Assembly: GCF_988242995.1 (NCBI RefSeq) | Contig: NZ_OZ547043.1 | Length of the DNA: 64,000 bases | Strand: one strand, 5' to 3' | Part shown: positions 1,585 to 47,949 of the stretch, in pieces | Layout: each line of letters begins with the position of its first letter | Position numbering within the stretch: position 1 is the stretch's first letter | Made by a program: the position numbers and the translations under genes | The notes under the pieces: generated by a model | Databases searched by the model: none | What the model was told of the DNA's origin: nothing | Seen by the model: the letters and a program-made list of their open reading frames with translations, nothing else

Positions 1585-2380
1585 GGTTCTCTCCAGCTTT
1601 AGTGTCGTTTTGTGTAGGGCAAAAACGAATGACATTCGTTAAATTAATCGGAAAACAAAGCATTACCTTTTAACTAAAAGATAAGTGACCGTGTTGACAT
1701 AGTTTTAGCGAGAAATTAATTCTCCATAGGAGAGCAATATCACATCGCAGAATTACAGTGAGAACGTGCATAAATTTAGCGGGAAAAGACATAAGGGAAA
1801 GCCAATTTGTCAGACAAATTGTCGAATGCACAGCAGATTAATCCATAAGATTAGCCTGGAAATCCTTGTTGTCTTTGGTACCCATGCGGGATGTCTTCTT
1901 TTTAACCAGTCAATAGGCCGCATTACCTGGCGTTGAGTTTTTGAAATGGTGTAATAACCGCAACTCAAAGATGTGGAAAATGTACGTCATTCATTTCGCC
2001 ATTAATTATCACTGTGCTCATTAATTAACAGAACACGTATAATGAGAGCCATCTCGCAAAAATGAAAAAACGTTTTATAAAATCATCACTTCATCATGAA
2101 TTCAAATTCATTGATTAATATCAACAAGATACAAAAAGCGCTATCATTAAAATTCATTGCAGTTACATTGATTTCATCAATGAAATGTAAAAATATATAA
2201 ACTTGATGATTTAAGCATTTTCTTATACCCGTTCAGACGTTATTCTTATTTCAGATCATCGTCAGAATTGACTCCACGATCACATTTCGGACCGGCAGAA
2301 AGGAATTATTCTGCAAACAGTAATTATGGTGTTTTGATTTATCTTGCACCTCTCCACTTCTGGATATAAGGATATTAGGT

Positions 2381-2884
2381 ATGGCAACCGCTGGAATGCT
2401 TCTCAAACTCAACTCTCAAATGAACCGCGAGTTTTACGCATCCAATCTCTACCTTCACCTGAGTAACTGGTGTTCTGAACAGAGTCTGAACGGCACCGCC
2501 ACTTTCCTTCGCGCCCAGGCACAGAGTAATGTGACCCAAATGATGCGCATGTTTAACTTTATGAAGAGTGTCGGCGCTACCCCCATCGTTAAAGCCATTG
2601 ATGTTCCCGGTGAAAAACTGAACTCTCTGGAAGAACTGTTCCAAAAAACGATGGAAGAATACGAGCAACGTTCTAGTACGTTGGCACAGTTAGCCGATGA
2701 AGCGAAAGAACTGAATGATGATTCAACCGTCAATTTCCTGCGCGATCTGGAAAAAGAACAGCAGCATGATGGTCTGTTGCTGCAAACCATTCTTGATGAA
2801 GTGCGCAGTGCGAAACTTGCGGGTATGTGCCCTGTGCAGACCGACCAACATGTTCTGAATGTCGTGTCACACCAGCTGCATTGA
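2381..2884 (+). CDS. ftnB: ferritin-like protein FtnB
   Basis: 167-aa ORF with ferritin-like fold; recognised sequence and position between araF and yecJ. Confidence 0.85.
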
Positions 2885-2962
2885 TCATCATCGGCGCTAA
2901 TGCATTGCGCCGATGAAGGTTTTGAGAAACCGCTGCCTCATCTGTTTGAAGCAGCGGTTTTT

Positions 2963-3214
2963 TTAATGGGATTCACCCTGTGGGGTAAACTTGAGTTCAA
3001 TAAGCGCGATGGCTTTTTGGATTGCCCGCATGGTGACCGGGTCTGCGGCGGCGGGATGTTTAGTAAAGTCGATATTCTTCAGCTGACTGGACATTTTTTC
3101 ACGAACTTCAACGGGCGCGATTACATCGAGAACATCCAGAATTTGTTTGATAACCAACTGGCAAGCAACCACATCAGAAACCAGTTCCTGATCGGCATTC
3201 AGCGGCTGGGACAT
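2963..3214 (-). CDS. yecJ: DUF2766 protein YecJ
   Basis: 83-aa ORF recognised as YecJ; conserved neighbourhood. Confidence 0.8.
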
Positions 3215-39370: not shown

Positions 39371-39457
39371 AAATCCCGACCCTGAGGGGGTCGGGATGAA
39401 ACTTGCTTAAGCAAGAAGCACTTAAAAAATTCGTTACACCAGGAAATCTGATGTGTT
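39371..39457 (-). ncRNA. dsrA: DsrA small regulatory RNA (Hfq-dependent; rpoS activator / hns repressor)
   Basis: Reverse complement reads AACACATCAGATTTCCTGGTGTAACGAATTTTTTAAGTGCTTCTTGCTTAAGCAAGTTTCATCCCGACCCCCTCAGGGTCGGGATTT, matching DsrA including its terminator hairpin. Confidence 0.9.
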
Positions 39458-39636: not shown

Positions 39637-42176
<2,540 letters not shown>

Positions 42177-42247
42177 CCTGCTTTTTTATGATTCTGGCAT
42201 AACCTGGCGATAGCGTACCGCAAAACAGCGATAATTTTATAATGGTG

Positions 42248-42376
42248 GCATGATAAGACGCGACAGACATCGATAGTTTTATAACGTAGGCATGATAAGA
42301 CGCGATAGCGTCGCATCAGGCAATTCAGTGCAGACACTGGCACACCCGACCGGATGCGACGTGAGCGCCACATCCG
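42248..42376. repeat. REP/palindromic-unit cluster (two ggcatgataagacgcg copies plus a 15-bp perfect inverted repeat)
   Basis: Direct repeats at 42248-42263 and 42290-42305; palindrome acacccgaccggatg...catccggtcgggtgt at 42340-42376. Confidence 0.6.
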
Positions 42377-42398
42377 GTCGGGTGTTAATGATACCCTT

Positions 42399-42581
42399 TC
42401 AAACTTCTTCCGCAGGACGACTTCCCTCCCCCGGAACAAGCTCGGTTTCATGAAAAGCTTCCCGCTTGACCCCGTAACCGTCATACCAACGACACTCAAC
42501 CATACCGCTGGAGTATCCGGTGACAATCATCCGCGGGCCGCCCTCTTTAACCGTAACTTCCTCACTAACCATAAAGCTCAT
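42399..42581 (-). CDS. yodC: DUF2158 protein YodC
   Basis: 60-aa ORF recognised as YodC. Confidence 0.8.
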   Translation of the reverse strand: MSFMVSEEVTVKEGGPRMIVTGYSSGMVECRWYDGYGVKREAFHETELVPGEGSRPAEEV

Positions 42582-42659
42582 ACTCGCCTCCTTTTTTCGA
42601 GTGAAACTTGTTCACCTTAGTTGAAGATGGCGAATTTTGCATAATAGCCTGTGCGAGTA

Positions 42660-43577
42660 TTAATGTGCCTGACCGCGTATTTTCGCTACGGCTTTCACTC
42701 CCAGCACCACGATGCCGCCGATGATAAATCCAAGAATCAGATTTAAAACAGTCGGTAATATCATCGCCACCACTGCACTTTGCTGCCCGGCGAAATGTTC
42801 AATGGCGTGATGCAGCGGCGCAATACCATGTACCACAATCCCGCCGCCGACGAGGAACATCGCCAGCGTGCCGACAATCGATAACGCTTTCATCAGCCAG
42901 GGCGCGATAATCAATAATCCTTTACCTAATGCCTGCATCAGCGCGCTGGATTTTTCCGCCAGCCAATACCCCAGGTCATCAATCTTAACGATAACCCCTA
43001 CCAGACCGTAGACGCCCACGGTCACTACCAGCGCGATGCCTGAAAGCACCAGCACCTGATTAAGCAACGGCGCTTCGGCCACAATCCCCAGCGTGATGGC
43101 GACGATTTCCGCAGACAATATAAAATCGGTACGAATCGCCCCTTTTATTTTGTCCTTTTCAAACTTCAGCGGATCCTGCGCCGCCAGCTTCTCCAGACGC
43201 TGCTGACTCTGCGCCGGATCTTCTTTATGTTTACGCGCCTCCAGCATATGCAGCACTTTCTCTCCCCCTTCAAAGCAGAGAAACGCGCCGCCAATCATCA
43301 ACAGTGGCGTAATCGCCCACGGGATAAACGCACTGATGATCAGCGCCAGCGGCACCAGAATCACTTTATTGATCAGCGATCCTTTCGCCACGCCCCAGAC
43401 CACGGGAAGTTCCCGGTTGGCCCGCACGCCTGAAACTTGTTGCGCATTGAGCGATAAGTCATCCCCTAATACACCGGCGGTTTTCTTCGCCGCCAGTTTG
43501 CCCATCACGGAGATATCGTCCAGTAGAGTGGCGATATCATCGAGCAACGTCAGTAAACTACTCCCGGCCAAAAGCAT
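42660..43577 (-). CDS. yedI: DUF808 inner-membrane protein YedI
   Basis: 305-aa membrane ORF recognised as YedI. Confidence 0.85.
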
Positions 43578-47713: not shown

Positions 47714-47861
47714 GACTCACTCATTTTTTGAACAAATAGATAATTTTTGCGCAACGGCAGTGAATACAGGAAAAATCGTTTTGAGCGATTTTATTTATCT
47801 TTGATATCGGCTTTATTAATTCATTTAATCAATATATTAGCACTGATTACAATTATACCTT

Positions 47862-47949
47862 TTTATTATTCTGTGTCATGATGCTTACGTTATTAGCCTT
47901 TTATCGTCTTGTTTATATTTTTTGGGCCGGCATGATGCCGGCTTTTTTT
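47862..47949 (+). ncRNA. rseX: candidate RseX-like small RNA (5' end approximate)
   Basis: Intrinsic terminator gccggcat/gatgccggc plus T7 run at 47926-47949 with no ORF upstream; I recall RseX mapping between yedR and the yedS porin in K-12 (position and strand from memory, not verified). Confidence 0.35.

Follow-up and report, generated by a model that had tools for sequence, protein, structure and literature searches.

A repeat cluster in the yodC-dgcQ spacer of Escherichia coli that is very probably a partly decayed BIME, and its three natural alleles

The 64-kb window analysed here, meaning the whole stretch of DNA under study, derives from E. coli and contains a dense cluster of repeats and hairpins between two genes of the minus strand, which raises the question of what these repeats are, how they arose and whether they act on either neighbour. 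The cluster lies in the 3' UTR of yodC (42399-42581, minus strand), a coding sequence for a 60-aa DUF2158 protein, and upstream of dgcQ (yedQ; 40467-42161, minus strand), a diguanylate cyclase coding sequence with a GTG start at 42161. Measured between the coding sequences, the spacer is 237 bp long (42162-42398) rather than the 220 bp given in an initial sequence-only reading of the window. A spacer alignment showed that the part next to dgcQ (42162-42246, minus strand) is conserved and non-repetitive, and this part is the putative promoter and 5' UTR of the gene. It contains TTATAAAATTATCG, carries a GGGAG Shine-Dalgarno motif ahead of the GTG start, and is nearly invariant in all Escherichia spacers aligned, with counterparts of the upstream motif present in Citrobacter (ATAAAATTATC) and Atlantibacter (GTTATGCCA). 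Two open reading frames overlapping the spacer, of 53 aa (42292-42453, plus strand) and 134 aa (42122-42526, minus strand), were set aside as spurious, as both are disrupted in other alleles by 54-nt and 13-nt indels and by substitutions.

Within the remaining part of the spacer, GGCATGATAAGACGCG was found at 42247-42262 and 42289-42304, exactly two copies on the plus strand of the 64-kb window. When up to two mismatches were allowed, the chance expectation was 0.03, and two or more matches were seen in none of 100 shuffles. The duplicated 16-mer had been correctly recognised in the sequence-only reading, with its coordinates placed 1 nt too high. Both copies form the cores of a 42-nt tandem repeat (86-87% identity, TRF score 127), the two units of which differ from each other at 6 of 42 positions. 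The unit nearer yodC (42267-42308, unstranded) combines the flank ACATCGATAGTTTTATAAC with a GTAG tag and one arm, the first, of a complete Y REP. In the unit nearer dgcQ (42225-42266, unstranded), a flank containing TTTTATAAT is accompanied by half of a second Y REP, an orphan piece (GGCATGATAAGACGCGAC, 42247-42264, plus strand) with GGTG ahead of it in place of GTAG. This orphan half lacks a partner arm and does not fold into a hairpin, the fold of 42244-42285 being comparable to that of shuffled sequences (z = -0.1), and it is the sole REP-like piece that is unchanged in the short allele of strain K-12. The 42-nt repeat would be best regarded as a relic without a separate function.

The REPs of E. 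coli are distinguished by a 5' GTAG tag, an imperfect palindrome and an AA/GC bulge, of which the tag and the bulge are required by TnpA-REP (PMC8266576; PMC3479197). All of these features were found on the plus strand at 42286-42321, where a GTAG tag (42286-42289) is followed directly on its 3' side by the palindrome GCATGAT-AA-GACGC-GATA-GCGTC-GC-ATCAGGC, with the AA/GC bulge present and intact. The approximately 35-nt imperfect palindrome folds into an outer stem, an internal mismatch, a 5-bp inner stem and a 4-nt loop (-14.8 kcal/mol, z = -4.6), a single C-to-A change having converted GGCCTGAT to GGCATGAT in the outer stem. The two halves of the Y REP consensus were matched with 0 and 1 mismatch. 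A search with a 43-nt query gave no fewer than 40 matching places in each of 5,425 genomes among the 5,426 complete E. coli genomes. Non-orthologous copies showed 95-97% identity over 39-41 nt, and the copy in the window is itself extragenic, situated between two coding sequences. As every sequence-level test gave the result expected of the family, 42286-42321 is considered a bona fide Y-type REP. It shares its tag, palindrome, bulge, extragenic position and high dispersed copy number with the Y-type REP as described for E. coli (Ton-Hoang et al. 2012; PMC8266576), from which it differs by the one outer-stem substitution, whereas the copy at 42247-42264 is merely a half with an altered tag.

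The hairpin nearer yodC proved to be of a different kind. ACACCCGACCGGATG at 42342-42356 is followed by its exact reverse complement at 42371-42385 (expected number 0.00), meaning that the 15-bp perfect inverted repeat noticed earlier is real, although its reported coordinates (42340-42376) were off by 2 nt at the start and by 9 nt at the end. It forms part of a Z-type REP derivative, a near-perfect 20-bp hairpin with a 4-nt loop (42342-42385, minus strand; REP core 42348-42379), which starts 13 nt after the UGA stop codon of yodC and is separated from the Y REP by a 20-nt linker (42322-42341, unstranded). Its predicted RNA fold is an unbroken run of 20 pairs, including two G-U pairs, with an energy of -41.1 kcal/mol (z = -7.7), compared with -21.6 kcal/mol for the fold of a canonical Z REP. 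Neither the tag nor the bulge is retained: the core GACCGGAT (minus strand) is preceded by ACCC instead of GTAG, and GU, paired with GC, stands where the AA of the bulge would be, in a stem that is 8 bp longer than that of a canonical REP. Binding by TnpA-REP is abolished once the bulge is closed (PMC3479197), and the sequence prerequisites of this RAYT enzyme are present in the Y unit and absent from both the Z-derived hairpin and the orphan half.

Among 1,214 genomes the full Z-derived hairpin was single-copy per genome, and its 28-34-nt core gave weak matches at other loci (82-89% identity, E = 0.2-10; median of 2 places per genome). Its relationship to the family is apparent from its position, since REPs of the GCCGGATAAGGCGTTCACGCCGCATCCGGC type are found 13-17 nt past the yodC stop codon in five other Escherichia lineages, and the canonical positional orthologues in other Escherichia take the form GTAG-GCCGGATAAGGCG..CGCCGCATCCGGC. 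The tags of the orthologous Z units are GTAG in the second units of E69 and E. whittamii, GCAG in SCPM-O-B-8794, and CCAG or CCAA in first units. With two defining features lost, the hairpin would count as a REP by descent only. It is referred to as Z-type without a Z1 or Z2 subtype, those names being used inconsistently in the literature.

Considered as a single element, the two hairpins were aligned end to end by the Rfam naRNA4 covariance model at 42289-42379 on the minus strand (43.3 bits, E = 1.8e-5), with the Z-derived hairpin matching the first (Z) hairpin of the model and the Y REP its second. The model (RF02564) was built on the BIME unit of REP325, a Z+Y REP pair, and has a gathering score of 59.5 bits, which the window element fails to reach mainly because its linker is approximately 13 nt longer than that of the model. 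The arrangement is that of a BIME, comprising the Z-derived unit, the 20-nt linker and the Y unit with GTAG ends outward. Tandem copies, which are frequent in the family without being obligatory, are represented in the window only by the orphan Y half of a second unit. The cluster is thus very probably a partly decayed BIME, made up of two inverse REPs and the stump of a second unit. The term 'REP/BIME units' used for it in the sequence-only reading holds as far as family identity is concerned, given the naRNA4 alignment, the GTAG tag and bulge of the Y unit, the occurrence of that unit at 40 or more places per genome and the orthologues in other Escherichia described below. It does not hold for the individual parts, as one 16-mer is the 5' arm, on the plus strand, of the complete Y REP and the other is an orphan half, so that the pair does not amount to two REP units, and the inverted repeat is a single-copy REP derivative lacking both GTAG and bulge.

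In BIME-1 elements of the RIB/RIP type, the linker contains an IHF binding site. No match to the IHF consensus WATCARNNNNTTR was found anywhere in 42162-42398, including the linker, and assignment to the IHF-type BIME-1 class was rejected on these grounds. The same observation bears upon a possible role at the level of DNA, whereby the BIME would bind DNA gyrase, IHF or HU and so influence supercoiling or form a domain boundary between yodC and dgcQ. BIMEs have been reported to bind these proteins (PMC2817692; bioRxiv 10.64898/2026.03.23.713779), and the Z+Y arrangement resembles the naRNA4/REP325 unit. However, with no IHF consensus in the spacer and only 1.5 units present, one REP of which is degenerate, a function of this kind would seem very unlikely at this site.

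The antiquity of the element was apparent from an outgroup scan with a degenerate yodC codon pattern, in which one genome per species was taken and 52 loci were obtained. Six of these belonged to other Escherichia lineages, with yodC and dgcQ ranging from about 96% identity to the window (MOD1-EC7003) down to 84-88% (E. albertii). In all six, a Z REP, a linker and a Y REP were found right after the yodC stop codon, most of them canonical (for example GTAGGCCGGATAAGGCGTTCACGCCGCATCCGGC), and an alignment of ten spacers demonstrated positional orthology of the Z unit, the linker, the Y unit and the flanks. The orthologue of E. whittamii scored 61.4 bits against naRNA4, above the gathering score, and those of E. 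albertii, SCPM-O-B-8794, E1V33 and E69 scored 49-55 bits; a naRNA4 search of the MOD1-EC7003 and K-12 spacers returned no hit. As E. coli genomes contained matches to the canonical E69 element at a median of 31 places each, membership of the orthologous element in a dispersed REP family was confirmed. The sequence-only reading was to be abandoned if the repeats matched no REP family and were not conserved in related strains; instead, REP pairs occupy the orthologous spacers. Furthermore, both E. whittamii and 'E. coli' E69 have two tandem Z-Y units in this spacer.

Outside Escherichia, no REP was found at this site in Citrobacter (C. freundii), Atlantibacter or Yokenella, where a GC-rich hairpin with a T-rich tail is present instead. 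This hairpin resembles the Escherichia element in its position relative to the yodC stop codon, its stability and its GC-richness, but the Escherichia element is composed of REP units and has no U-tract. It is termed terminator-like here from a reading of the sequence alone, a strict terminator scan of the Citrobacter and Atlantibacter hairpins having returned no call.

Variation within E. coli was surveyed in 5,426 complete genomes, and three alleles were distinguished. The long allele of the window, with the Z-derived hairpin, linker, Y REP and orphan Y half, was present in approximately 1,150-1,160 genomes (about 21%). A mid allele (about 57-61 genomes, or about 1%; for example DXMF6-3R and HS30-1) lacks exactly one 42-nt period and retains the complete Y REP and the long hairpin. 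The short allele, found in approximately 3,980 genomes (about 73%) including K-12, O157:H7, Nissle 1917 and O111:H8, has a 170-bp spacer in which both REPs are internally deleted. Its Y remnant is an orphan-type half only, and its Z hairpin lacks the central 13 nt (ACACCAGGCCGGAT-GTG-ATCCGGCCTGGTGT), leaving a hairpin of -25.3 kcal/mol at the same position. The long allele therefore carries two hairpins and the orphan half, the mid allele two hairpins, and the short allele one short hairpin, while the 13-nt spacing between the yodC stop codon and the first hairpin is identical in all of them. Between the window and K-12, the sequence of 42130-42264 is identical and divergence is concentrated in the BIME. 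An alignment across strains had been suggested as a check for variation in repeat copy number; strains do indeed vary, but through deletion and decay rather than through simple REP copy number. A few genomes contained other rearrangements, such as an IS1-associated deletion in AST205.

The flanks of the 42-nt units were informative with regard to the origin of these alleles. In a comparison with E. whittamii, the flank nearer yodC agreed with the unit-1 flank at 23 of 26 positions and with the unit-2 flank at 19 of 26, whereas the flank nearer dgcQ matched the unit-2 flank at 25 of 26 and the unit-1 flank at 18 of 26; comparison with E69 gave the same pattern. A recent 42-nt duplication within E. 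coli was rejected as the source of the repeat, because 6 of 42 positions separate the units and each unit has its own counterpart among the flanks of the two-unit BIME in E. whittamii and E69. The most economical reading of the compared sequences would comprise five steps. A Z+Y BIME would already have been at the site in the ancestor of the sampled Escherichia lineages, and would then have undergone tandem duplication together with its flanks, creating a junction between GGCGGTA and GAATCAAAAG. In the lineage of the window, deletion of the second Z and of the 5' part of the second Y would have left the 42-nt repeat. The mid allele would have arisen from this arrangement by recombination between 17-nt direct repeats, and the short allele by two more internal deletions, removing 13 nt of the Z core and the Y 5' arm. 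MOD1-EC7003, the closest outgroup, has a mid-type structure, which makes the placing of the long allele before the mid allele provisional. The 8-bp extension of the Z-derived stem was found only in E. coli and MOD1-EC7003.

If the cluster has a present function, its position suggests where this might be exerted. The effects on mRNA stability, supercoiling or transcriptional insulation put forward in the sequence-only reading are plausible possibilities of a kind generic to REPs. Read on the minus strand, the yodC stop codon is followed by 13 nt, the Z-derived hairpin, the 20-nt linker, the intact Y REP, a 26-nt flank, the orphan Y half and finally the conserved dgcQ upstream region. Upon transcription the hairpins would form part of the yodC mRNA, in its 3' UTR. 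There they may block 3'-to-5' exonucleases, thereby stabilising the yodC mRNA, and may partly attenuate read-through into dgcQ, with the REP hairpins taking over the job of the terminator-like hairpin found in related genera. The whole spacer was predicted to fold at -85.6 kcal/mol (z = -4.1 against shuffles), with the 20-bp Z-derived hairpin and the inner stem of the Y REP both formed and flanked by partly non-native pairs. In K-12, ChIP-seq has placed a peak of sigma-S RNA polymerase at yodC, the promoter region of which was bound (PMC4447067). The supplementary tables examined from a K-12 3'-end mapping study (PMC7815308) contain no 3' end labelled yodC, and for dgcQ they list only an internal end.

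The precedent for such an activity is REP325, which acts as a partly Rho-dependent terminator and stabilises the mRNA upstream of it; tandem genes flank about 40% of the REPs in E. coli, although REP effects depend on context and mRNA half-lives are not generally extended (bioRxiv 10.64898/2026.03.23.713779). The window element resembles REP325/naRNA4 (RF02564, K-12 yjdM-yjdN) in having a Z REP and then an inverse Y REP on one transcript between same-strand genes, in a full-length model alignment that spans both hairpins, in having an E. whittamii orthologue that exceeds the family threshold, and in the action proposed for it, as a 3'-UTR stabiliser and partial terminator, which has been shown for REP325. 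In contrast, REP325 has 12 palindromic units in 6 repeats, whereas the window element has 1.5 units, a linker about twice as long (an insertion of approximately 13 nt relative to the model) and a Z hairpin with an extended stem, without bulge and without GTAG. By analogy with REP325, a role in stabilising yodC mRNA and attenuating read-through may be put forward tentatively, as a possibility that falls somewhat short of an even chance.

Two other consequences of a hairpin at this position were considered. The first is that it might serve as an intrinsic (Rho-independent) terminator of yodC, as could be expected of a very stable, GC-rich hairpin directly after the stop codon, at a site that carries a hairpin and T-rich tail in related genera. 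However, there is no U-tract on the minus strand behind either hairpin, the first being followed by GCCAGUGUCUG, and a terminator scan of 42000-42700 returned 0 sites. Intrinsic termination was consequently rejected as a candidate and retains only the slightest probability. The second concerns translation. Liang, Rudd and Deutscher are said to have described, in 2015, stalling and trans-translation caused by REPs lying no more than about 15 nt from a stop codon. By analogy, terminating ribosomes might collide with the hairpin located 13 nt past the yodC stop codon, lowering the output of YodC. The constant 13-nt distance in all E. coli alleles and the stability of the stem in both the long allele and K-12 are consistent with this, but the effect was described for canonical REPs, which the Z-derived hairpin is not, and such coupling is considered improbable.

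The main rival to a function in the yodC 3' UTR is that the cluster is a neutral relic, that is, a decaying selfish or hitch-hiking repeat without present function, whose alleles record nothing but slippage and recombination involving palindromes and direct repeats. Much of the evidence described above can be read in this way. Both REPs carry internal deletions in about 73% of genomes, the one-unit mid allele is the exact product expected from recombination between the 17-nt direct repeats, and the 13-nt deletion takes out the centre of the palindrome, as hairpin slippage would. In addition, the Z-derived unit has lost the GTAG tag and the bulge that TnpA-REP needs, and the divergence between the window and K-12 falls within the BIME next to an identical flank. 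On the other hand, despite the heavy turnover of the repeats, all E. coli alleles and all Escherichia lineages examined retain a strong hairpin shortly past the end of yodC, and the presence of a terminator-like hairpin at the site in genera free of REPs suggests that a 3'-end structure is needed. The changes observed in the stem also preserve its pairing. Two stem positions vary among three haplotypes (A:T/G:C/G:C, A:T/G:C/A:T and C:G/G:C/A:T), in each case through double changes that keep the pair, and these fit selection on the hairpin and hairpin-templated mutation equally; because templated mutation accounts for them just as well, they were not counted as proof of function. Since about 73% of E. 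coli genomes have both REPs internally deleted, intact REPs are clearly dispensable. A neutral relic is regarded as rather unlikely overall, though it is the alternative to be taken most seriously. The combined explanation, in which a decayed BIME with the deletion history set out above would act as a stabiliser and attenuator, is considered probable, with appreciable room for doubt.

It was also conceivable that the 42-nt duplication copies part of the dgcQ promoter (TTATAAAA, with the REP half at about -35) and thereby alters dgcQ transcription in long-allele strains. Each 42-nt unit contains a -10-like TATAAAA motif, and the unit proximal to dgcQ provides TAAAAT, a 5/6 match to TATAAT. Moreover, the motif ATAAAATTATC is also located upstream of dgcQ in Citrobacter, and the region is nearly invariant in Escherichia. 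However, the copy proximal to yodC has TAAAAC, in which the essential final T is missing, and a promoter scan of the spacer on the minus strand called no sigma-70-type promoter. Furthermore, the duplicated flank is a relic of the old BIME duplication and not a recent promoter duplication. An effect of promoter dosage is thus held to be a poor prospect.

With the BIME reading retained, the element can be set against other members of its family. REPINs consist of two inverted REPs, and a RAYT transposase is presumed to mobilise them (PMC3116915; PMC3337134). The window element differs from them in that only its Y unit retains the features needed by TnpA-REP, and in that it is fixed at a single orthologous site throughout Escherichia and shows no trace of recent mobility. 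Polymorphism of BIMEs between E. coli strains was reportedly described by Bachellier et al. in Genetics in 1997, and the yodC-dgcQ BIME behaves similarly, being full, partial or a remnant depending on the isolate, with divergence concentrated there. A literature search combining yodC and yedQ found no paper describing the BIME of this locus, of which K-12 has a remnant only. The element is a new, well-resolved instance of the known REP/BIME family, and nothing points to a new class of element.

The importance of the locus is modest and lies in the clean, datable life cycle of a BIME that it displays at a single site, namely the occupation of the site of a terminator-like hairpin, tandem duplication, internal deletion and the conversion of a REP to a plain long hairpin. 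The K-12 reference contains only the remnant, which would go unnoticed in a search relying on canonical REP features. The K-12 record NC_000913.3, as consulted, shows no repeat features even for the msrQ-zinT spacer, where the window has a canonical REP, and their absence at yodC-dgcQ is therefore uninformative. A further suggestion is that the three alleles might act as a cis-regulatory dial, setting both the sigma-S-driven read-through from yodC into dgcQ and the stability of the yodC mRNA. Although this is speculative and judged to have little likelihood, it would, if true, contribute to the known differences between strains in DgcQ-dependent c-di-GMP and cellulose production. The three natural alleles lend themselves to a test of the recent proposal that the expression of neighbouring genes is tuned by REPs, because one neighbour of the element has a promoter to which sigma-S RNA polymerase binds in K-12 and the other encodes a diguanylate cyclase that regulates cellulose.

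In Escherichia, the position just downstream of yodC is held by the BIME, the partly decayed REP cluster of the yodC-dgcQ spacer, whereas in Citrobacter freundii (locus L042), Atlantibacter hermannii (L043) and Yokenella (L055) it is held by a GC-rich hairpin that runs into a T-rich tail, as illustrated by the sequence AAGAGGGAAACCGCAGGGTTTCCCTCTTTATTT from these non-Escherichia genera. No terminator was called at these hairpins by the strict terminator scan, probably as a result of the scan extending the stem into the T-run. Upstream of dgcQ, the motif ATAAAATTATC, located in the window at 42229-42240 and again at 42271-42282, was found to be common to Escherichia and C. freundii (L042), and GTTATGCCA was common to Escherichia and Atlantibacter. 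Both motifs could represent dgcQ promoter or regulator-binding elements that are older than the BIME.

Loss of the BIME was seen in E. coli AST205 (L003, NZ_AP043614.1), where an IS1A element next to a 5'-truncated hchA was identified at 1655-3013 of the locus, with about 92 bp between dgcQ and the upstream IS1A. As the truncated hchA directly adjoins this IS1A, the segment spanning yodC through the beginning of hchA, BIME included, has been deleted beside the insertion sequence. Among the 5,426 complete E. coli genomes, 2 of the roughly 5,400 yodC-dgcQ spacer matches per search were in records classed as plasmids and not as chromosomes. Two further records labelled E. coli, E69 (L023, CP089930.1) and SCPM-O-B-8794 (L016, NZ_JAATUR010000007.1), have yodC and dgcQ genes with only 86-92% identity to those of the window, and are probably members of cryptic Escherichia clades.

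Besides the yodC-dgcQ cluster, the window contains only one clear REP, a canonical Z-type unit (GCCGGATGCGGCGCGAGCGCCCTATCCGGCCTAC) at 55229-55262 on the + strand, ending at its 3' end in CTAC, the reverse complement of GTAG. Judging from collinearity with K-12, this unit should lie in the msrQ-zinT spacer.

Three known small RNAs were detected in the window at full score, namely STnc490 (17944-18067, - strand), DsrA (39371-39457, - strand, with the 3' end of dgcQ approximately 1 kb away) and RseX (47860-47949, + strand). An Rfam match to 'Plastid-psbl-rps4 3'UTR' at 57548-57599 (+ strand), antisense to tRNA-Ser (57548-57634, - strand), scored 40.9 bits against a threshold of 68 and is almost certainly spurious. 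The same Rfam match was observed in the compared locus L047.
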